NCBI GenBank assembly: GCA_000004985.1 | Contig: GG738845.1 | Strand: one strand, 5' to 3' | Origin: Naegleria gruberi | Lineage: Eukaryota | Length of the DNA: 64,000 nucleotides | Shown here: positions 3,642 through 51,603 of the stretch, in pieces | Position numbering within the stretch: the stretch's first letter is position 1 | How the letters are laid out: every line of letters begins with the position of its first letter | Program-made: the position numbers and the translations under genes | Notes under the pieces: model-generated | The model's input: the letters and a program-made list of their open reading frames with translations, nothing else | Told to the model about the DNA's origin: nothing | The model's database searches: none

Positions 3642-4105
3642 AAATAAATTATTTATACCTTACTAATAATACTCATCATCGTTTAGCGTGCTACTACCAC
3701 CTTATTGGCCCACCGTTTTTTTTAACTCTATTAGTAAAAAAAATAGTTTGAGAATAATAACCATGGGGGAAGAGCTACCACCACGTAAAATATTCTTCCT
3801 CTCTCAATTTGCATTTGGGTCAGCTTGTTGTTTTGTGATTTGTTTTATAGTATGGTTGGGAGTGTTTTTTGGAAGCAATTTCTATGGTAAGTTAATATGG
3901 TATGATTGGAATTTTAGTATGAAATTTTGTACTGTAGAAATTAGAGTTAAGGAAACTTTCCTTCCGACAACTTGTAAGGTTAGTAGTGTCTATTAAGACC
4001 CTCTTAAAATCCTGAATCAACAAAAAGGTAATTAAAAGAGAAGTTCTCTCATACAAACACTGTGAAACTAGTTGCTTTGGTTGTAACGAGTGTGAATATT
4101 CTAAA

Positions 4106-4651
4106 TTGCCTTCTTGCAATAATGCTGATTCTTATTTAACCTATAACTCATCTGCCTATTGTTGTGGAGGTTACATATGTTGCAGTGAGTGTGATTGTGA
4201 TGAAAAAGATCGCCACTGTCGATGCTGTCACAGTATCAGTCATCAAAAATGTAGAATGGATTGTTTTGAATATTGGAGGGGAGAAATTACAATGGAATAT
4301 TTGACCGTGGAAAACAAGACAATTGGTTCACTAATGGTTAAGGATTGCAGAAACGAATTTTCTTGCATTGACATGTATTTTGATTTGTGGAAAGTGAATC
4401 AGACTGGACAATGTTTCTATAATCCTATGAGACCATCAGAGTTTGCCACAAAGAATACCTATAACATGGATGCTTTTAGTGCCATGTATGTTTTTGCAAG
4501 CTTTATAATATTATACTGTTTGCTTTGTGTTCCAAGTTGTACTATCTTTGCATATCTTAAAAGAAATAAGAGTAACGGAGATCAATTAACGAATATTCAT
4601 CCTCCAATAACTATTGTTTCAACAGAACCAAATGTGGATTACAATGTCTGA
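4106..4651 (+). CDS. hypothetical cysteine-rich protein with a C-terminal TM helix; may be the 3' exon of a multi-exon gene starting near 3764
   Basis: 181-aa ORF with dense Cys content (CCGGYICCSECDCDEKDRHCRCCHS) and a hydrophobic C-terminal segment. Upstream in-frame open stretches at 3764-3890 and 4040-4105 are separated by GTAAGT-like sites. No recognisable family. Confidence 0.3.
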   Translation: MPSCNNADSYLTYNSSAYCCGGYICCSECDCDEKDRHCRCCHSISHQKCRMDCFEYWRGEITMEYLTVENKTIGSLMVKDCRNEFSCIDMYFDLWKVNQTGQCFYNPMRPSEFATKNTYNMDAFSAMYVFASFIILYCLLCVPSCTIFAYLKRNKSNGDQLTNIHPPITIVSTEPNVDYNV

Positions 4652-5649
4652 TAATGTGTGTCTTTTGTTGCCTGTTTGAATTGGCCGTAATTAAATTTTA
4701 AGGTAATAGAAACTAGAGTATGATGAGTAATACCTTTATGAATATATATTGTATTTCCTTTAGAATCTAGTAATTTGGTTACCTTGGTAAGTCAAGTGTT
4801 GTATATTTTCACTTTATTAGTTGTAAATGACTTTGAGAATAAATATATATATATAAACAGTTACAATTTAATTTGATTGCAATAATCTAAATGAAAAGCT
4901 ATTAAAAGTACTTTCTTTTTATTAGAGATCCCATGTTTCCCATTTAATATCGAGTAGTAAAAATATGTAAATTAAAAAATGGAAAAAATGTTGAGTTTTG
5001 GTATTTTTTTAAAAAATGTTTTTTTCAAAAAAATTTCGATAAAAACTAGAAATTTATTAGTATTTCAATGAAAAATACGAATTTTCATACATGCGTTGGT
5101 GGGATATGTTTGTCATATTAGATATTTAATAAAAATAAAATAAAAATTTTCGCATGCATTTATATATATATATAAATACATCCGAAAAAATTTTTGTTGA
5201 AAGTTGGTTTATTAGATGGTTAAATTGGTTTATCTGAAAAATCATTTAAAAGTGATTTAGATATAAAGATAATGAAATTAATTGAAAATTAAGAAGCTAA
5301 AATAAATTTTCAAAAATTTATCGATTTGAAATTTAGAAAAGCTTAACAAAGTAATATAAAAAACCATTAATTTTTAAAAATCTTCTAAAGTTGGTATTAT
5401 CATTATGAAGATTATTGATTGGAAGTAATAATCTTTATGGTAAATCCAAAGAAAATGAATTCAAAGAAAGAACAAACTTTGTAAAAATATTACAAAAACA
5501 CTGTTATTAGAAGTAGTAAAAGTAGAGTGATAGTTGTTTATTAAAACAAAGAAAAACTCTTACAACAAGAAATAGACAACTAGATTCATGGAGGTTGATG
5601 GAGTGATAAGTTTAAAAATAAATGGTCCAACTAATATCTAACATCAATT

Positions 5650-5652
<3 letters not shown>

Positions 5653-5680
<28 letters not shown>
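5653..5680. repeat. (TA)n microsatellite in AT-rich gene desert
   Basis: Direct read: atatatatatatatatatatatatatat. Shorter (TA)n tracts also occur near 4845-4856 and 5161-5172. Confidence 0.9.
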
Positions 5681-7430
5681 TTCAAATATCATCATTTGAC
5701 TACTTTCAGCTTTTATTGTTAAAAACATAAATAAATTTCCGGTGTTTATTACAACTAGGTAAAACTGAAACGGTGCTACTAAGTTGATTAAGGAACCAGG
5801 TCAACAAATGATCCTGTCTTGTTCCTGATAGTGATATCCACTTGATATCAACTACCAAGCAATACTACAAAAGCTATTGCTTTAGATAATTGGCTATCCA
5901 AATGAAAATGTCATTTGATCAAATTATCTGTCACCAAATTGGATATGATCAAATGAAATCCAATAAAATAATAAATTATTAAAAAATTATTGACTTACTA
6001 GATCTGAAATTTCTATTGAAATTATTTTGTGTTAGGGTGGGGTGGTGGGAATTCTTTAGCCACTTGTGGTGTGAAAGTGGCAAGTAAATCTTTTAATGAT
6101 GATGCCATTCTTGTAAATTTTTAAAATTGTTTTTGAAATTTGCTAGTTGACACTTATTTTATTGTTGTTAATAAACCTACATAAGCTTAACGCTTACTGC
6201 GAAAAAATAAAACACAAAAAATCAATTCAACTCAAAAACAAATTTTGTGAAAACTTGAATTTAGACTAAACTACCTAAACGGTACTACTAAGTTTACCAT
6301 TGTTACACTGAGATATTATGATCTTTTTTGGTTTTTTCATTTGTTTGGTTAGTCAATTTGAAGTTTTGAAAAAAGTTGAAGCTGTAGTAGTTTTTGGTTC
6401 ATCAAAAGCAGTTTTTGGTAATTCAAATCAAGAAACAAGGTAATTTAGAATTTTCTAATAAAATTAAAGAACCAATTGTTTATTAGAAAATAATATACAT
6501 CATCTTCCTTCAAAACATAATTCCTTAAACATTTCGAGTCTTTCAAACCTAGTTATTTAAAGCTGAAACAATCGGTGTTTTATTTTTGAGACCTGCTTTT
6601 ATAAATATAAATCTTGTACGATTGAATGAGTTTATTGATGTTAAGAAAAGAACATAGGAAGAATATATTTATCACAAGATTCACAAAGAAAATCAAGGAG
6701 GGATTATTGAAGTTCATTTTAAAAACACAAACATGCAATTTTATTGTACCTTAAAAAGAATTTTATAAGCATCCTTAAGACGTTATTTGATTCAACCAAT
6801 TGGTTGAGTAGGTATTTTAAGAGAATATAATGAATAATTTGGAGCATTTTGGAATGAATTTTTTTTTATAAATAATTTGATAAATCATATTCTCAATTTA
6901 AATGTAGAGAAATAGAAAATTATTATGAAGGCTATTTACAACTCATTTTACAGGAAATACTTATATTTAAGAAACGAACTAAGTGTTCGAATACTTGATT
7001 GCCCTAATTAATCATCTGTTCATGTTGTTTTTGAATTGTTGATTTTATCATTAAATAAATCACCAAATCAACAATCAACCAACATGAAATAACTTTGTAG
7101 TTGTTATATTTAAAAGATGTTAGGGTTTTGTTATTTATTGAATACAGAATAATAAAAGAATCAATTTGGTTTTCCTGATGAATTAAAAAATGTGTTTGAT
7201 GTGTCGGCATTTTTGTAATAACTGTCTAATAGAATATAATTTGACAACAAATTCAGGCTAGAAATTACATTTCAATTTATGAAATAAACTTTATTTCATA
7301 TCATGGTTATTTAAAATACAATATCTCAAAAATGGATCTTGTGTATTAAATAAGATAATTAGTTCGTTTCTGTTTTAGGTTTGAAAAAAATTTCAAATAA
7401 AATACCCTTCATTAAATCCAAGTTTAAAAA

Positions 7431-9795
7431 ATGTCTTTCATTGTAAGAGGGGTTAAAGATGGACATTTTATTGCATTACATTTTGATCGGAATAATAATG
7501 AATTGATAGAGGAATGGTTTGAGTGGAATGGTAATGATTTAGCATTAAAGAAATCCTCCATATTGCAATTATTTACATCACATCCTCCTATCAATCAAGT
7601 AGAATTGTTTGAAATATTTAATACAACTATCGGAATGTAGGTAGAATTTAACGAATTATGTGATTTTAATATAATTCATAGATCACAAATATACATGGTA
7701 TCACTATTAAATAATTATCAAACCATGATGATTCATGTAAAATTGTGTGGACAAATGAATAATAATTGGTTAAAGTGTTTTGAAATGGATACAAGTGATC
7801 AATTTAATGAAAAATCTAAATTGGAAATATATGGATTGGATGGGCCTAATTTTATTATGAAACAGGATTCACACTTGTTTTATATTAATTCTAATAATGA
7901 GGTATTATTTACGAATTTAAATGAAGAAGAATCGAGTGACGTGAAATTTAAAATTATTTATTGTGATTACATTGGTGGTGATAGAGATTTTGTTAATATT
8001 GTATTGGCATCGAATAAGAATCAGTACAGTTTATTTAATGTACCAGTTTGTTGTTCTCGTAATGAGTGTTCATTCATTGAGTGGTGTGACAAGATTAATG
8101 ATCAATTTAAACTACCTCAAGCAACTTTTTCAACACATAGTTCCTGTTTAGCATTTCACAACGATTCTACATTTATTGGAAGTGTGGAGAAACAGATATT
8201 AATATTCAAAGATAATTTAATTAATAAGTGTATAGAAATCAAGTCTATTCCCGTTAAAATTAATGTATTGACAATTAATAGCCATCCAGTAAAGGAAGAA
8301 TATCTGATTGTACACACATCCGATAGACGAGTGAGTATAGTTTCACTTCTCGACTACTCTATTCAACAAGGTATGTGTTTCAAAATAGACTATTAATCTT
8401 TAATCTACTCTAGAAATCCAAGGTGTTTTAGAATATCATATTGGGGATTTTATGTATTCAGGTTCTCAACAATTAATTTGTTTTCATACTGAATTGAGTT
8501 TTGGGAAAGTATCATACACACTTATACCTAATATGAACGAATCCATTACTGATGGAAACATTACCATTAAAGAGAAGAATATTAAGGGAAAGCACTTGTA
8601 TTCCGTTCTGAGATCTCTTGCATCACGAATTGAACAATGTCACCATGATTTAACCAAAATTGAGAGCAATACCTTTTTCAAATCTCAATTAATTCAACAT
8701 CAACAAGAGGTCACTCTGGATATTTTGAAAGGTATCAACTCTAGCTCTACCGAAATCGAGGCTTTGGATGAAAATGAAGAGTTGGAAATTGGCACTAGGA
8801 TTTTATTCAAAAATAATTCAATTAATTTTGGAAATACTTTATTCTATGATAAAAGAATAGAAGGAAAAAATAACAAGGATACATCAGATATCACCATTCA
8901 GTATGCTTCTCAATCCTTTAATATTAATCAGTGGACAATAAGAACGATGTTCAATAAGTGTAATCCCAACTTGGATTTATTAATAGTACCAATTTCAAAC
9001 ACTGTTAATATGGAGAGTGAAATATTCAAATCTGAAAACTCTGAAACATCTGATCTCGTCCTGAAAATGAAAACTCCCCAACACTATTCAGATCCAAATC
9101 TCTCTGTAAAGTGTATGGTTATCAAGAGAGATACCACCAACCCAAATCAAACTCAATTCGAATATCTTGGAAGTATTCAACCTTCAAGCACGGATAAACT
9201 ATTTGGAATCAAGCCATCCCCCATAGAAATTGAACAACCTGATATCCAACATGTACAATTCATTTTGATGAGGAACAACAAATCACATTCTGGCACTTCA
9301 ATAGAGCAAATACTAAAAGAGTGCCTCTCCAATGAGCTAGGTATGAATATTTCAGAAAATCCTTCAAAAACTGACTCGCCAACAATACCGACTACCAATT
9401 TTGAATTTAACACACTCTCTAAGGGTTACAGTTCATCCCTCTACTATCGAGTCCAATATTATAGTGAACAAGTTGTTGAAAATGAAAGTTCATTAATATG
9501 TAATCTATATGCAGATACCAATGAAACTGTCATGTTAGTGATTGAGAAAATTCAACAAACCCTAAAATCTGAAAATGTTATACTCCTTCTCTCACCTCTA
9601 ACAATGATGAACGATCGAAGGGAATTAATATCAAGTTTATCAAGGGAAATCAAGCACGTCATTTTCAAATTACACGATCATGTTAAAAAGATGACACTAA
9701 TGAACCCACAAGAGAGGGAAATTCAAAACGACATTCTTATCTATCTTCAATTACAAATGGAAAGTGATAAGGTAATTTCAAAATTATTGGAATAA
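7431..9795 (+). CDS. hypothetical protein, 3 exons (about 750 aa)
   Basis: ORFs 7431-7640, 7695-8396 and 8452-9795 are collinear. They are joined by short introns with GTAGGT...CATAG (about 7637-7684) and GTATGT...CTCTAG (about 8380-8412). Mild Asn/Ser enrichment; no family recognised. Confidence 0.45.
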
Positions 9796-23193: not shown

Positions 23194-24975
23194 ATGAATG
23201 AACAACAAATATTTATTTCGGAACAATTGGAACTTCAAGTTGATTCTTTGAACGAGTTGAAATATAAAAAAGTCTTTGCTAATGAAGAAATTGCCAAGAT
23301 TGTTCAAAAACGTACAGATTACTTGTACTTGTTGGCTTCATCACTTCCTAAGGAAGATTTATTACATCCATATTTATCACACATGCTATTCGAATTGAAT
23401 TTATTACAATTAATTAAAACTAGACTCAAATTGAATAAGAAGAAGAATAATGATTTTAATATTCACTTACAATTTCCATATAATCAATACAAGATTGGTA
23501 TTGCTAAATTTAGTACACAAATTTATCTTATGAAATCTTATATTGACTTCTGTATGCAATATCAATTGAAACCAAACTCTGCTTTTGACCAAGTTTTATC
23601 AAAACACTCTAATCAAGAACAATTGTGGTTATTATACTCTAAATTTGAATTTGAATATAATCAAGCTATTGATAGTGGTATTCAAATTTTAAAGAATGGT
23701 ATCAAGGCAATTCCACATACTAGTCAATACTTACACTTGGAATTATTGAAATTATACTTGATTAAAGCGGAATATGCTGAATTTAGAATGCTTTTCAATA
23801 GTGTATTAGAAAATTTAAATAATGTAGAATATGGATACTTTTTTGAAATTATTAAATTATTAATGTTCTATTATAGAGAAGAATTGACCAAGAATGATGA
23901 AGAACAAGATGATATGAGCGATGATGAAGAACCAACTTCAACTGAAAAACATGAATTCTTCACTGAAATGATTGAATTCATTCTTGAAAAGGTATTATTG
24001 AAGAATTATAGAAATGATGAAAAGTGCTTGTACGAAATTTTCAAGTTCAAACTGACCTATTTCAATAATAATACTGATTATGAAGAGTTAATCTCCAATA
24101 TGGAGAATATTTGCGATAGAATTTGTCATACCAGCAAAATGTATCACTATTACATGTTATTATTAATTGATATTTTTAATATTACAAAGAAGGTTGAATA
24201 CATTAATAGAATTCACTCAGTCTTTGGAAAGATGAATACTTTCAACTTGTTGACCTTTAGGACAATTTTAATTTATTCTAACATTTTATTATCTATTGAA
24301 GATAACTCTCAACAAGTTGTCAAAGTTTTGAAGCAATTACACTTGATTAACTCTAATCACTCTAGTGACTTTTTCAAGTGCTTACTCTTACTTTTAGATT
24401 TGACTAAATATAGCAGAGACTCTATTGATTATTCTGTGAAATTGGTAAATGAAAAGAGTGCTGACAATGAATTCAAGATTCAATTCTATGAACAATTATT
24501 TACCAATATTTCTAAATCAGTATCACAAGAACAACTCCAACATTTATATTTGGATGGTATTAAGAATACAGGAAACTCACACGAAATCAAAAAGTTATAC
24601 TTTAAACATATTATTGATAATGTGGCACAAGGCGATTATCAAAAATTGGACAAGTATGTGAAATTAATTCTCTCCCTACCACCAAATTCCCATCAAGTTT
24701 ATCAAATGATGATTACTTACATTACCAAACATTTGACTGGTTTGGAATCAGCAAGTTGTGGCAATTATCACTCACTGTTAGGATATTTATATGAACAACA
24801 AATGGTTGAAAATAGACATGATTGGAAAGTTTACATTCAATATATGCAATATTTAAAGAAACAAAATCGTTTGAAGAATATTTCATCAGTTTACCAAAAG
24901 GCTGTTAATGCCTTGTCTGGTAAATCAGAAGAATTATCAGCTTTTGTTCAACATTATGATAAATATGTTAAATAA
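23194..24975 (+). CDS. Utp6-like HAT/TPR-repeat protein (U3 small-subunit processome component)
   Basis: The N-terminus EQLELQVDSLNELKYKKVFANEEIAKIVQKRTDYLYLL matches the Utp6 N-terminal domain pattern (L..E.M.PEL.DL....F...EI..IV.KR..FE..L). It is followed by helical repeat-like segments with an acidic insert. Confidence 0.6.
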   Translation: MNEQQIFISEQLELQVDSLNELKYKKVFANEEIAKIVQKRTDYLYLLASSLPKEDLLHPYLSHMLFELNLLQLIKTRLKLNKKKNNDFNIHLQFPYNQYKIGIAKFSTQIYLMKSYIDFCMQYQLKPNSAFDQVLSKHSNQEQLWLLYSKFEFEYNQAIDSGIQILKNGIKAIPHTSQYLHLELLKLYLIKAEYAEFRMLFNSVLENLNNVEYGYFFEIIKLLMFYYREELTKNDEEQDDMSDDEEPTSTEKHEFFTEMIEFILEKVLLKNYRNDEKCLYEIFKFKLTYFNNNTDYEELISNMENICDRICHTSKMYHYYMLLLIDIFNITKKVEYINRIHSVFGKMNTFNLLTFRTILIYSNILLSIEDNSQQVVKVLKQLHLINSNHSSDFFKCLLLLLDLTKYSRDSIDYSVKLVNEKSADNEFKIQFYEQLFTNISKSVSQEQLQHLYLDGIKNTGNSHEIKKLYFKHIIDNVAQGDYQKLDKYVKLILSLPPNSHQVYQMMITYITKHLTGLESASCGNYHSLLGYLYEQQMVENRHDWKVYIQYMQYLKKQNRLKNISSVYQKAVNALSGKSEELSAFVQHYDKYVK

Positions 24976-25159
24976 AATTAATTCTCTCTGCAGACAATTA
25001 TTTAAATTCTTATCAGAAAAAAATTATTGAAAAATTAAAAAAAATTTAAACGTTTATTAATCGTATGAACCCGACGGGTTCGTCTTGATGATATTACGAA
25101 TATTAAATAATAAATTCTTTCTTGTTGGGATTGCTTTGTTCATTTCTTGTAACTCTGTG

Positions 25160-25303
25160 GACACAAATACTTGGCTTGAACACCCTATGCTGGAACCCCG
25201 GGTAGTATAGGGTACGGTGACTTAACCCGACGTAAGTATTGCGGCAACACACTGTGGTCTCAGGGTCAACAGTGTAGTTACTGGGTGGTACGACATTTTT
25301 TTT
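25160..25303 (+). ncRNA. candidate small structured RNA (GC-rich island ending in T8; class undetermined)
   Basis: About 120 nt of locally GC-rich sequence (ccccgggtagtatagggtacggtgacttaacccgacg...gggtggtacgac), terminated by tttttttt, within otherwise AT-rich intergenic DNA. Confidence 0.25.
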
Positions 25304-25324
25304 GAGACGGAAAAATTAAAAAAA

Positions 25325-26377
25325 ATGAAAACATCACAACTCTTTATTAAACCAAAATTAATTTTCGGAAAGAATTTTTCATCATGTCAACAACTTTTTA
25401 AAACAACAATATCACAACAATCCATTAGATGTTTTTCAACAAGAAATTTACAATTGGAACAACAAAATAAGCCTTCCATTGATAAAATTTTACAAAAGGA
25501 TTTTCCATCATCAAAGAAGGAGGCAACAATAGTAAATCAACCACCAAGAGAGACACTTTCATCGTTTTTTAAATCACCATTTCTCAAGAGGGATAATGAA
25601 CAAGAGGAATATCTTGGACCAATTCGTGAAATGATTTCTGTGAGTATGAAGGAAGTTCCTACAGGAGCACTTATTGCTACAGGTGTTGCTATTTTACCAG
25701 TTATGGTTGGTGCTGCATCCTTCTATTTTTCATCACTTCCTGCCTATGTTTTGTTTGGATATCAACTCAATTATTCTTCTACATTGTTAACATTGTTGGG
25801 TGCTTCACATTTGGGATTTTTGTTTGCTGATTATGTGCATCCAGCAAAATTCAAGTCTTACATCATGTCACAAAATACTAATTTTGATCCAACAACAGCA
25901 GCAAAACAAGAGGAAGTGGATATTAGCAAGGAATTGGAAAAGAGAAAAACAGCCCATACTGTTATGAGATTTGTTCTCTTCTCGTTTTGTCAATTGGTTG
26001 CCTTCTCTTGTTTGGCACTTCCAGTTGTTAAATCCTCATTATTATTGGCTGGTACATTTTCAATCTTGTCATATTATGATGCTGTAATGACAAGTCGTGG
26101 TTTGGCTCCAAACTGGTTCACTTCACTCAAGGTGCCAATCACCATCGTCCTTGTTGCCACAATTCTTTCATCATTATTCTTCTATCTGATTTATGGAGCT
26201 ATGGAACAATTTGATGAAGATACCGAAAAGGAATTACAAAAATTCGAAGATTCACGAAAGAAGGGAGGTTTGAGAGAAACTATCAACTTTGTTGAAGAAG
26301 CCAAAGCAAAGAAGGAACACCTTGTTCAACTCTCAGAACAAAAGCAAAAACTTTTGGAAGGAGTCAAGAAGGAATAA
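25325..26377 (+). CDS. hypothetical multi-TM membrane protein with C-terminal coiled-coil/charged tail
   Basis: 350-aa ORF. Presequence-like N-terminus, several hydrophobic helices, C-terminal EKELQKFEDSRKKGG...KQKLLEGVKKE. Confidence 0.5.
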   Translation: MKTSQLFIKPKLIFGKNFSSCQQLFKTTISQQSIRCFSTRNLQLEQQNKPSIDKILQKDFPSSKKEATIVNQPPRETLSSFFKSPFLKRDNEQEEYLGPIREMISVSMKEVPTGALIATGVAILPVMVGAASFYFSSLPAYVLFGYQLNYSSTLLTLLGASHLGFLFADYVHPAKFKSYIMSQNTNFDPTTAAKQEEVDISKELEKRKTAHTVMRFVLFSFCQLVAFSCLALPVVKSSLLLAGTFSILSYYDAVMTSRGLAPNWFTSLKVPITIVLVATILSSLFFYLIYGAMEQFDEDTEKELQKFEDSRKKGGLRETINFVEEAKAKKEHLVQLSEQKQKLLEGVKKE

Positions 26378-26534
26378 AAGATTTTTGACTTTACTGATAC
26401 TTTACAATGAGCAGTCTGGCCGCTGATTGATATGTGCACTCCAGACTTTGATTAATTCACTATTTACATTGTGTCGCAACCTTGAAATCACGAGAGGCTG
26501 GTTTTACTAATAATGTGCACATACCGATCTGTTT

Positions 26535-27330
26535 TCACATGGTTGTATTCAAAGTATTCTGAAGTGCCATTGAAACTAAATCATTGTCTAGGGCAACCTT
26601 GACAAATTCGTCTCTTGAAATTGAGCCGTCCTTATCTGCATCCAATTTGGCAAAAAATTCATTTGAGAATTCTTCTACTGTCTTTCCACATTTTTGAAAT
26701 TCCTTTGGGAAACTTCTGTAAAGTTGAAAAATCATTCTCTCCACTTCATCCTTGGTAATTTTTCCAGTCTTTTACTTAGCTTAATATATTATTCAATTTC
26801 ATTAAAACCTACTCTATCTGTATCGTAAACTTCAAATGCACTTTACAATTTGATTTTCCATTATTGATATATATTCAATGATCAAATACTCACAATAAGA
26901 CCTTCTCCTCAGCTGTTGCTCTCGTATATAATGTCATGGTCACAACATATTCCGCTATAGATACTATTCCATCATTATCCATATCAAAAAGACTAAGGTT
27001 CAACATTAATAGTATTTTCGATTTGGCCATTGGTTGTTCAATATTACACTTGAAAGACACACAACTTACAAATATAAAGAATCTACCATAGGTGTGGTTG
27101 GATTTGCCAAATTAACAATCTTGGCCAACTGTTCTCTCGGAATTGAACCATAAGGAAAACGTTGTGCCAATGATTGAAATAATTTCCGCACTTCTTCCTT
27201 ATCCAAATTTAAGGCCTTACACACTCTGCTTATTTCCTGCATTGTTCGTTGATATGAGTGCAGGATTTTAATAATTAAGGTAAGCCACTACTCCACACAG
27301 AAAAAATCTGTTACGTACTGATGATTGTTG
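26535..27330 (-). CDS. neuronal-calcium-sensor (recoverin/frequenin)-type EF-hand protein, N-myristoylation motif, at least 4 exons
   Basis: By hand translation exon 1 is ATGGGCTCACAACAATCATCA (MGSQQSS, MGxxxS myristoylation consensus), followed by a GTACGT...AATGCAG intron. Later exons encode EISRVCKALNLDKEEVRKLFQSLAQRFPYGSIPREQL, the EF-hand loop LFDMDNDGIVSIAEY, and the last exon FAKLDADKDGSISRDEFVKVALDNDLVSMALQ. Confidence 0.75.
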
Positions 27331-27581
27331 TGAGCCCATTTTTTTCAAATTTACCTCCTAACCTGTTTTTGTGGCCGTTTTCTGTTAAGTTATCATGATT
27401 CTGTAAAGATTTTCTCAATCATTATTTCCTAACTTGTACTTGTATTAATTTGGAAAGTTTATTCAGTAAGTAATACTGAAAACAATCTCAATTCACTAAT
27501 AATTCACGAATAAAAAGGTTCATGATTTAAATGTCTAAACTCATTTCTCAATTCTTGTAAATTAGTAATTCTCTCTCTTAT

Positions 27582-38901: not shown

Positions 38902-38997
38902 ACGTTTAATAAATTCTAGACCTTAAATAATTGCAAAAAATCTACTCATTAAATCTTTGCAACATAGCAGCCAAATCATCCATCAACCACAAAAAAA

Positions 38998-41586
38998 ATG
39001 CCTGCAGGAGCCTGGATTATGAATAAGCTTTATACCTTGGGAAATGGATTTTACGACATGACCATGACCAAGCAATCGGATCGTGTAAAATATAAATACG
39101 AAAAGAAGATGAAACAAGTTGAAAAGTTTGTTAGTGAAGATGGTGCCATCAAATCTCACTCGATCGATCAAAAGAAAGTGATCATCACGTACGTATTTGT
39201 TTGTTTGATTAGTCACTTACGTTTAACAGCTTCGACAATTCTCGTTTGACTTTGCGTTGTATTGACAATATTGTTTGGAAGGTTTCATTCATGCCAAAAG
39301 AGTCGGTTGAATAGTAAGTACTGATAGTTAAAATAATATTAAATTTGAGAACACGATCCATTCAATCAATTAAATTATAGTCCATCACTAGTAGTTTCCG
39401 ATGATGCTCTTAATTTTGTAAATATTATTGTTGATGAGGAGAATGAAGATTTTATTACATTCAAACCAGCTGACAGTGCATTGACCAAACTCAAACTCAA
39501 CAAGAAGAATCTTTCCATTGATATCCTGACACAATTTACCAATGACCAATATACTACTGCTTTCAGTAATATCAAGGTTGCAACCAGACCAAAGGATGAA
39601 CAAGCAACTAATATTTCCTTTGGATATAATGTTTCAACTGTAAAGAGTGTTTCAAATGATTGGTTTGGTCTGGGAGAAAAGTCCAACTCTGTCAAGAAGA
39701 ATGGTAAAAAATACTTGTTCTGGAATTGGGATTCATTTGCTTATCAGAGTGAAACTGATCCACTTTATCAAAGCATTCCTTTCGGTATTGTCTCATCTAA
39801 ATTTGAAATTGATCAAGGAAAAACAGAGAGAAGATTTAATGGTATCTTTATTGACAATTATGGTATGCAACAATGGGATTTAACTTCAGAAGAACATTTT
39901 TCCGCCAATCTTGAAAGCTTCCCATGTAATGTTTACTTTATGGCTAATAATGCCAAGACACCATTCAATATTTCAAAGACCTATGAACAATTGACTGGTG
40001 CCAATCCAATGGTTCCATTGTGGGTTTTAGGTTATCATCAATGTAGATGGTCCTACTATCCAGATACTCAAGTCAAGGAAATTGCTCAAGAATTCCTCGA
40101 TCGTGACATTCCTTGTGATGTCATTTATTTGGACATTGATTATATGGATGGTTATAGAGATTTTACATGGAGTAAGACTGATTTCCCAAATCCAAGAGAA
40201 TTACTTAAATGGCTTCACGAAAGAAAATTCAAAGTGGTCACAATTTTAGACCCAGGTGTCAAGGTTGATTCCAATTATGATGTCTACAAGACTGGGGTTG
40301 AAGGAAATCATTTCTGTGCCTATCCTAACGGTAAACTCTATGAAGGTGTTGTTTGGCCTGGTGCTACTCACATGCCTTCCTATACTTCTGAACCAGTTAG
40401 AAAGTGGTGGGCTGATTGGTATAAGGGACTCATTGAAGATGGTGTTGATGGTTTCTGGAATGACATGAACTGTCCATCAGTTAAAGTCAATCCAATAGAA
40501 GCTGGTACCATGGATGACAATGTTTTACAAGTTATGGATGCACCTTATCCAAGTCCACAAATGCACAAGGATATTCACAACTTTTATGGTAGTTCCATGG
40601 CTATTGCAAGTAGAGAGGGTATTGAAAAATTCCAAAGACCACTCAATAGAAGATCATTCCTCTTTGCCCGTGCTTGTTTTGCAGGTATTCAAAAACATGC
40701 TGGATCTTGGAGTGGTGACAATATGTCTACATTTGAACATTTAGCAATTTCTTTGAGATTATTAATGGGACAATCAATTTGTGGTCAACTCATGGTTGGT
40801 GCTGATATTGGTGGATTCAGATGGAATTGTTTCCCTGAATTGTATGCACGTTGGATTGCATTTGGTTCCATCTTTTATCCTTATTGTAGATCTCACACTG
40901 ACAAGTTCACTATTCAACAAGAACCATGGTCTTTTGGTGAACAAGTCGAAGCCATCTCAAAGAAGTTTATCAAACTCAGATATCAATTAATGCCATACTT
41001 GTACACAGCCTCTGTTCTCCACAGTAAGAGATCAATGCCAATGATTAGACCACTATTCTATGATTTCTCAAGCGATGAAGAATGTTACAATCAAGAATGG
41101 TTAGATACACAAGGTATGATTGGTAATGCTCTTATGGTGGCTCCAATCTTACATGAAAAACAAACTTCCAGAAAGGTCTACTTGCCTAAACTTGAAGAAG
41201 AAAAGTGGTACGACTTTTTCAATCCAGCCAATTCATATGAAGGTGGACAAGTTATCACTGTTGAAGCTCCTTTGGATCATTTACCAGTTTTTGTTAAGGG
41301 AGGTTCAGTCATTCCAATGAGACAAACTCATGCTCAATCAGTTTATGATTTACATTTGGTTGACTTGACTTTCAAATCTTTCGGAAGTATTGTTACCTCA
41401 CAACAAAACTACCTCTACTTGGATGATGGTATCAGTTTGGATTATGAAAATGGATTGTATGGTTTCTACCAAATTGAAGATGCTAATGGTACCCTCAAAT
41501 TATTGGAAGGTAATGGTTTCCCAACACGCTTGGAGATTGGAAAGGACTTTGAAAATCTTGAACAGTTCACTGCCAAATTCTATTAA
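38998..41586 (+). CDS. glycoside hydrolase family 31 alpha-glucosidase (multi-exon; 5' exon assignment uncertain)
   Basis: The main exon (about 39381-41586) contains the GH31 catalytic nucleophile region DGFWNDMNCPS and IHNFYGSSMA, plus DVIYLDIDYMDGYRDFTW, typical of GH31 (glucosidase II-like). Upstream small exons at 38998-39193 and about 39262-39316 are bounded by GTACGT and GTAAGT...ATTATAG introns. Whether 38998 is the real start is unproven. Confidence 0.8.
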
Positions 41587-51512: not shown

Positions 51513-51603
51513 GGTGCGATGGTCGAGTGGTCTAAGACGACACGTTTAGGAGTGATAAATTCCGTGTTCCGCAAGGGCGTGGGTTCAAATCCCACTCGCA
51601 TCA
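51513..51603 (+). tRNA. tRNA-Leu (anticodon TAG) with 11-nt intron at canonical 37/38 position
   Basis: GGTGCGA TG GTC GAGTGGTCTAA GAC G ACACG TTTAGG [agtgataaatt] C CGTGT, then a long variable arm TCCGCAAGGGC, T-arm GTGGG TTCAAAT CCCAC, acceptor TCGCATC and discriminator A, followed by gTTTTTT. The D-loop GAGTGGTCTAAG and anticodon loop TTTAGGC are like known eukaryotic tRNA-Leu(TAG). Confidence 0.85.

Follow-up and report, generated by a model that had tools for sequence, protein, structure and literature searches.

A discrete segment of 264 bp (positions 25046-25309) stands directly upstream of a DUF3429 gene in the window, the 64-kb stretch of Naegleria gruberi DNA that was analysed. A sister strain lacks this segment, which has a perfect 17-bp direct repeat at its two borders and is compositionally unlike the host DNA around it. 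It is best filed as a small insertion with a target-site duplication, and any RNA function of its GC-rich core is putative. From the sequence, it appears close to an even chance, and slightly short of one, that the insertion is of a small non-autonomous unit, either SINE-like (short interspersed nuclear element) or otherwise retroposed, with a putative RNA polymerase III (Pol III)-type module on its + strand. The features on which this rests are:

25046-25309, no strand assigned: the insert, 264 bp, present in N. gruberi NEG-M and not in the environmental contigs L004 and L009.
25029-25045, no strand assigned: left copy of the 17-bp direct repeat GAAAAATTAAAAAAAAT, a putative target-site duplication, from an exact repeat search.
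25310-25326, no strand assigned: right copy of the 17-bp repeat GAAAAATTAAAAAAAAT, whose last two bases are the AT of the downstream start codon.
25176-25295, + strand (weakly favoured, from G.U pairs): GC-rich island, candidate small-RNA body, from its GC rank.
25296-25303, + strand: T8 run, a candidate Pol III terminator, or a 3' splice-site pyrimidine tract with the AG at 25305-25306.

The empty site is represented by two contigs, L004 (an ENA metagenome) and L009 (Logan), both from one environmental run, ERR1078381. Over 4.2 kb, L004 and the window share 97% identity. Both contigs are without 25046-25309, and in both the left and right flanks are joined precisely, with a single A-rich copy of the target. 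The remaining indels between NEG-M and the environmental strain are all of 33 bp or less; indels of 16, 4 and 2 bp separate the strains in the native 70-bp intergenic region (24990-25045 compared with 745-815 of L004). The target motif differs between strains (GATTTTAAAAAAAAT in L004, GAAAAATTAAAAAAAAT in the window), while the flanking genes are 97 to 99% identical. L009 has an upstream haplotype as in L004, yet is 99.4% identical to NEG-M downstream, a mosaic which suggests recombinant haplotypes in the environmental sample.

As the segment has no counterpart in the sister strain and is flanked by a 17-bp duplication, any RNA gene that it contains would be dispensable or multi-copy and would have arrived by insertion. 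An earlier reading of these letters (the sequence-only reading) had named, as one part of the outcome that would overturn its own proposal, that the island is a promoter or 5' untranslated region (UTR) element of the downstream gene; a conserved element of this kind is not compatible with the segment being missing in the sister strain.

The pair of GAAAAATTAAAAAAAAT copies, identical at 17 of 17 positions, is the longest exact direct repeat at 30 to 1000 bp spacing in the window, (TA)n aside. Inverted terminal repeats were sought at the ends of the insert and none was found. Duplications made by DNA transposons are 2 to 11 bp long and those of long terminal repeat (LTR) elements 4 to 6 bp, and Helitrons make none. 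SINEs and retrocopies mediated by long interspersed nuclear elements (LINEs) have target-site duplications of variable length, about 7 to 20 bp, and 17 bp is within the range expected for LINE-type insertions. A DNA transposon, a miniature inverted-repeat transposable element (MITE) or a Helitron was rejected on the 17-bp duplication, the lack of inverted repeats and the ends TTAAAC... and ...GAGACG, which are not 5'-TC...CTRR-3'.

A 17-bp duplication at an A-rich site, with no inverted repeats, was read as integration at a LINE-type staggered break. Most likely, an endonuclease and a reverse transcriptase of the non-LTR-retrotransposon kind would have placed the unit in the A-rich site directly upstream of the start codon, duplicating 17 bp of target. 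The unit, of which the island would be the core, may be a copy of a small non-autonomous element, SINE-like or of the 'tailless retrocopy' type, and its GC- and CpG-rich 120-nt core followed by T8 would be the candidate Pol III-type small-RNA module on the + strand. We infer only, and do not observe, that integration was mediated by a reverse transcriptase, that the insert belongs to a multi-copy set, that Pol III transcribes it and which strand is the coding one.

The composition of the insert sets it apart from its surroundings. It contains 13 CpGs, the maximum in the window, at an observed/expected ratio of 1.17 compared with 0.42 window-wide, and this ratio reaches 1.7 in its AT-rich left half. 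The native intergenic DNA to its left (24976-25045) has 15.7% GC and no CpG. A stretch free of both AAAA and TTTT (25042-25298) nearly coincides with the insert, and no open reading frame of 60 amino acids or more overlaps it. Across the window, which is 32% GC with short intergenic regions, two tRNA genes and strong CpG depletion, TpG and CpA ratios are about 1.3, and CpGs are retained in the tRNA regions and in the insert. The pattern is consistent with loss of CpGs through methylation in N. gruberi, with Pol III genes and newly arrived DNA left intact.

The GC-richest 120 nt of the window are at 25173-25292 (53%, compared with a mean of 31.9%, standard deviation 5.3%), and the GC value of the island as delimited here (52% at 25176-25295) is reached by 0.02% of 120-nt windows. 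The remaining GC peaks comprise one coding stretch and, as the next non-coding ones, the two tRNA genes. A GC-rich island ending in T8, with the same layout as the two tRNAs, had been the starting point of the sequence-only reading, and both parts of that description are correct: the T8 run is exactly at 25296-25303, and a T5 or T6 run comes only a few bases after each tRNA gene. Runs of eight or more T occur nine times on the + strand of the window, and runs of eight or more A 13 times. The + strand is free of TTTT from 24943 to 25298, so that T8 comes directly after the body, with no internal T4.

Further elements within the insert are listed below; the TATA-like stretch, the stem of hairpin 2 and GAGACG were read directly from the sequence:

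25067-25081, + strand: 15-nt perfect palindrome GAACCCGACGGGTTC, an extension of AACCCGACGGGTT; hairpin of -11.6 kcal/mol, z = -2.4.
25101-25116, + strand: putative TATA-like stretch TATTAAATAATAAATT.
25183-25212, + strand: hairpin 1, CCCUAUGCUG / UAGUAUAGGG, 10 bp including 2 G.U, z = -1.6.
25220-25237, + strand: hairpin 2, stem ACUUA / UAAGU, loop ACCCGACG.
25232-25239, + strand: GTAAGTAT, a perfect extended 5' splice-site consensus, with two + strand copies in 64 kb.
25249-25275, + strand: hairpin 3, ACACUGU / ACAGUGU, loop GGUCUCAGGGUCA, 7 bp, z = -1.1.
25304-25309, + strand: GAGACG, 6 nt that separate T8 from the right repeat.

The palindrome AACCCGACGGGTT noted earlier is present, but its single occurrence is at 25068-25080, 2 nt from the place first given (25070-25082). 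On the + strand, its extension GAACCCGACGGGTTC precedes the island by approximately 95 to 110 nt; as a - strand hairpin, it is placed about 21 nt short of the end of the insert. The 8-mer ACCCGACG has two copies in the window (0.07 expected), one in the palindrome and the other at 25225-25232, so the recurrence inside the island that had been pointed out is real. TGATGA (25086-25091), once thought C-box-like, is uninformative, as the hexamer and its complement occur 167 times on the two strands of the window.

TGAGAC (25303-25308) and the hairpin 3 loop segment GUCUCA (25257-25262) are complementary over 6 bp, and pairing of GGTCTCA (25256-25262) with TGAGAC (25303-25309) could be pseudoknot-like on either strand. 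GGTCTCA and its complementary site are also BsaI and BsmBI recognition sites, which was read as coincidence. The minimum free energy of the island is -35.7 kcal/mol on the + strand and -29.5 kcal/mol on the - strand. Neither is better than that of shuffled sequence (z of +0.17 and +0.54, respectively), compared with -1.95 and -1.71 for the tRNAs. The G.U pairs of hairpins 1 and 3 on the + strand become A.C mismatches on the - strand, and in these folding models they weakly favour the + strand.

Searches for a known RNA gave little. At the gathering threshold, Rfam matched the two tRNAs alone in the whole window. In permissive searches (E ≤ 10; 1 kb and 147 nt, both strands), which covered 5S, tRNA, U1-U6, signal recognition particle (SRP) RNA, RNase P/MRP, U3, small nucleolar RNAs (snoRNAs) and ribozymes, no family matched the island. 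The weak sub-threshold snoRNA matches in the wider of these scans are all outside the island, and Rfam found nothing on four related loci. ARAGORN reported no credible tRNA at default or relaxed thresholds of 50 to 80%, with junk at 50 to 60%, in agreement with Rfam and with the earlier failure to fit a cloverleaf. The loose likeness to 5S rRNA is unsupported, and 5S was rejected, since RF00001 had no match at E ≤ 10 on 147 nt and the folds have no terminal helix; the sequence-only reading had likewise been unable to close 5S helix I.

No B box with one mismatch or fewer is present in the insert in either orientation (matches need two mismatches) and A-box-like matches are at chance frequency; a tRNA-type internal Pol III promoter is therefore unsupported on both strands. 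A box C/D snoRNA was rejected because TGATGA is 90 nt upstream of the island with no CUGA on that strand, and an H/ACA snoRNA because ACA precedes U4 by 3 nt only with early termination and there is no ANANNA hinge between hairpins. For U3, SRP RNA and a telomerase template there is short motif likeness with no covariance-model support, the telomere-like matches being 6-nt permutations only. The abundant small RNAs of N. fowleri vesicles (PMC11761746) have no similarity to the island. Thus the proposed Pol III small RNA keeps its layout (a tRNA-like island, T8, no internal T4 and retained CpGs) but has no Rfam family, no tRNA, no usable B box and no fold better than shuffles.

Other copies and possible sources were sought widely. 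In blastn, the island (25120-25310) had no second copy in the 64-kb window or in nine heterolobosean loci (approximately 50 kb). One 18-mer had four chance matches only in JGI metagenomes. Four 20-mer scans of viral contigs (IMG/VR) found none, as did two 20-mers in 185,579 prokaryotic genomes. A six-frame translation matched nothing among 5.8 billion proteins and a 68-amino-acid open frame on the - strand nothing among 1.84 billion representatives. Plasmids, phages and E. coli genomes gave no blastn match, so insertion from a cloning host, or another cloning artefact, is unlikely.

Several points weigh against a SINE-like unit with a + strand Pol III module. No second copy was seen in the window, the heterolobosean loci, the JGI metagenomes, IMG/VR or the prokaryotic genomes. 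Naegleria genomes are reported to be very transposon-poor (0.13 to 0.28%) and the repeats of N. gruberi are reported as 5.1%, making a large family less likely from the outset. The insert lacks a tail of poly(A), simple-repeat or LINE-derived type, its + end being ...T8GAGACG and its - end ...AATAAACGTTTAA; the hairpin near the 3' end on the - strand is only suggestive as a tail substitute. No tRNA-, 5S- or 7SL-derived head is detectable, A and B boxes are not credible in either orientation, and the folding energy of the island is no better than that of shuffles. A + strand Pol III transcript that stops at T8 cannot template GAGACG or the approximately 130 nt of AT-rich DNA upstream, so retroposition of the + strand RNA by itself does not explain the whole insert. 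Finally, with no outgroup, the same difference would arise by insertion in NEG-M or by loss in the other strain (excision, or deletion between the repeats), synteny not being conserved in N. lovaniensis, Willaertia or the JGI relative.

Among known systems, the insert is like SINEs and tailless LINE retrocopies (tRNA, snoRNA and small nuclear RNA (snRNA) retropseudogenes) in being a non-coding segment of the 100 to 300 bp class whose presence varies between strains. It is also like them in the perfect 17-bp flanking duplication at an A-rich site, in the absence of inverted terminal repeats and in having a GC-rich, structured-looking part beside an AT-rich part. Unlike them, it shows neither a detectable head from tRNA, 5S or 7SL nor A and B boxes, lacks a poly(A) or repeat tail, and has no identified partner LINE or observed second copy; in addition, its T8 on the + strand is 6 nt inside the element. 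It is a rather doubtful, more specific proposition that the insert is an undescribed, recently active Naegleria SINE-like retroposon, transcribed by Pol III from a head that is not tRNA, 5S or 7SL, and integrating into A-tracts without poly(A), perhaps with oligo(U) priming. Such an element, if real, would vary between N. gruberi strains and carry a compact Pol III transcription unit, and no small mobile RNA element would have been defined earlier in Heterolobosea.

The same insertion may have its sense on the - strand, as a SINE-like or retroposed RNA with a GC-rich 5' head, an AT-rich body and a 3' hairpin (GAACCCGUCGGGUUC) approximately 21 nt from its end; this we consider somewhat unlikely. 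A partner reverse transcriptase would recognise the hairpin, and an oligo(U) tail would pair with the A8 of the target as primer. Indeed, the target ...AAAAAAAAT, as read from its letters, could pair with an A-U8 RNA tail. This strand has no T4 in its 264 nt, and the first T-run beyond them is the T8 of the flank. The arrangement of head, body and 3' hairpin resembles that of SINEs tied to a specific partner LINE, and the extra CGTCTC is at a 5' junction, where filler bases are common. However, hairpins 1 and 3 are worse on this strand, with A.C mismatches and the less favourable of the two folding energies given above (-29.5 compared with -35.7 kcal/mol). A SINE head would not usually have an A8 run 7 nt from its 5' end, and neither an A nor a B box is found in the first 100 nt of the - strand. 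As for the + strand sense, there is no Rfam or tRNA similarity and no other copy in the collections searched.

It is unlikely that the insert is inert filler or is foreign, a fragment of DNA or cDNA without RNA function that was captured once during repair of a staggered double-strand break. The fragment might come from prey, from a virus, from another locus or from the high-copy rDNA plasmid, and T8, GTAAGTAT and the hairpins would be there by chance. CpG content that is unlike the host throughout the insert is as expected from such a capture, as are the lack of a family, structure or promoter signal above chance and the single copy in everything searched, in a transposon-poor host. The intergenic region is also indel-prone, the 16-, 4- and 2-bp indels between strains being within 50 bp. 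Against this, a 17-nt stagger is rare at random breaks, the insert has no rRNA similarity, and none of the plasmids, phages, E. coli genomes, 185,579 prokaryotic genomes (two 20-mers) and viral contigs supplied a source. In addition, the abutment of T8 on the GC maximum would have to be a coincidence, of roughly a few per cent from the density of T-runs.

A role in polymerase II transcription is quite improbable. Here the insert would be part of the 5' UTR of the DUF3429 gene, and 25232-25306 a putative intron of 75 nt (GTAAGTAT...T8GAG) with T8 as its pyrimidine tract. Only two copies of GTAAGTAT are on the + strand in 64 kb, and this one is on the strand of the gene. An AG at 25305-25306 is 18 nt before the ATG. 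With its GT...AG ends and its length, the putative intron is in line with the local consensus, as the first two predicted introns of the neighbouring EF-hand gene are of 82 and 77 nt and start with GTACGT and GTAAGT. Furthermore, with the insert between the original 55-bp promoter region and the ATG, a transcript has to start within the insert or run through it. On the other side, the putative intron is 47 to 50% GC compared with AT-rich local introns, its removal would leave approximately 190 nt of insert with several upstream ATGs in the UTR, and the GC island, the CpG content and the duplication would be unexplained. As the segment is missing in the sister strain, splicing could be secondary co-option at best.

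Introner-like elements and staggered-break introns (Micromonas, Aureococcus, Daphnia) provide a comparison, being also short insertions with direct repeats in transcribed regions, and the insert resembles them in its strong 5' splice site and in the pyrimidine tract and AG near its 3' end. It differs in that the splice sites do not bracket it (the same 190 nt or so being left), in its position upstream of the start codon and in that no copy family is known. Excision of the whole segment as an intron was rejected: on reading the repeat registers, none has the GT needed for GT...AG excision of 281 bp.

It is very unlikely that the island is a single-copy orphan Pol III non-coding RNA gene of unknown class, ancestral at this site, that recombination between the 17-bp repeats removed from the environmental strain. 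Such a gene would be consistent with the + strand order of palindrome, TATA-like stretch, GC-rich body and T8, with the tRNA-gene-like GC and CpG profile and with the lack of an internal T4. The comparison systems are type 3 Pol III genes (U6, 7SK, RNase MRP and vault RNA) and the dictyostelid non-coding RNA genes with a Dictyostelium upstream sequence element (DUSE). These are alike in their upstream motif (here the palindrome), TATA-like stretch, body of approximately 120 to 165 nt without T4 and T-run, and the GC and CpG content of the insert is as in the neighbouring tRNA genes. However, the insert has no Rfam sequence or structure match, its 'promoter' is positional only and it is dispensable in the sister strain, having been lost, on this account, in a strain that is 97 to 99% identical. 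Perfect 17-bp repeats would still imply an earlier insertion, nothing similar is upstream of the orthologue in three other heteroloboseans, and folding gives no structural signal.

A divergent known RNA (U1 snRNA if the - strand is read, or a relic of 5S rRNA or tRNA if the + strand is) is effectively refuted by the lack of any U1 (RF00003), 5S or tRNA match at E ≤ 10 in a 147-nt search space and, for tRNA, by ARAGORN finding nothing credible at 50 to 80% thresholds. The complement of GTAAGTAT, AUACUUAC, does resemble the 5' end of U1 snRNA (an 8-nt match at 25239-25232, with an Sm-like AUUUGUG approximately 65 nt downstream), GUAGUUACUGGGUGG is loosely like the loop E region of 5S rRNA, and in 2008 an unfiltered Infernal search was needed for U1 of N. 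gruberi (PMC2396436). However, the putative U1 would start 70 nt inside the insert, which has neither the U1-70K loop motif (C)AUCA(A/C)GAA nor a 3' hairpin, both conserved even in kinetoplastids (PMC11613528), and the reported detection of U1-U6 by Infernal in N. lovaniensis (PMC6125883) also counts against U1.

As Naegleria genomes are reported to have hardly any transposons, a strain-polymorphic, duplication-flanked small insertion would point to recent activity of some integration machinery. The insertion would offer a simple polymerase chain reaction marker for distinguishing laboratory NEG-M from wild N. gruberi. It moves the 55-bp promoter region of the DUF3429 gene 281 bp away, a natural test of how far disruption of a 5' region is tolerated. 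Should the core prove to be a genuine Pol III unit, it could serve as a compact native promoter-terminator cassette, for example for guide RNA expression, in an organism with few genetic tools. If the insert is inert filler DNA, the finding is an ordinary one.

The genes that flank the insert are:

23194-24975: open reading frame for a Utp6-like protein, flanking the finding.
25325-26377, + strand: DUF3429 gene, 'mitochondrial inner membrane protein 1' (Pfam PF11911), context outside the element.

The DUF3429 product is identical at 350 of 350 residues to NEG-M XP_002683244.1, and the window is therefore N. gruberi NEG-M nuclear DNA. Orthologous DUF3429 genes in N. lovaniensis, Willaertia magna and a relative from a JGI metagenome have different upstream neighbours; synteny is not conserved, and no island-like sequence is upstream of the orthologue in any of the three. 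In N. lovaniensis, the 690 bp upstream of the orthologue (L001, 5311-6001) are relatively GC-rich, with repeated GCGC-containing motifs and A6T6 at the end; this region has no Rfam match and no likeness to the island.

A8 directly precedes the ATG at two gene starts in the window (25318-25327 and 38991-39001). The reverse complement of this A8-ATG context, CATTTTTTTT, is the T8 end of the island, and together with the downstream start site at 25318-25327, positions 25294-25303 make up an inverted repeat of 10 bp without mismatch.

The EF-hand gene (26380-27400, - strand) appears to have at least three short introns, starting with GTACGT, GTAAGT and GTGAGT. The first two (82 and 77 nt) both end in AG; the third appears to be shorter. 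When all three are removed, the first 95 codons are open. A fourth intron at GTAGGT was rejected, as GTAGGT is coding there.

One of the tRNA genes (51513-51603, followed by T6) was returned by ARAGORN as 'tRNA-???' with a 4-base anticodon; in its Rfam tRNA match (49.7 bits), an insertion of 14 nt follows the anticodon stem, so this tRNA probably contains an intron. Elsewhere in the window, several (TA)n microsatellites are found in 4800-5700 and 4001-8000, where GC is very low (26%) and GC skew is strongly positive.

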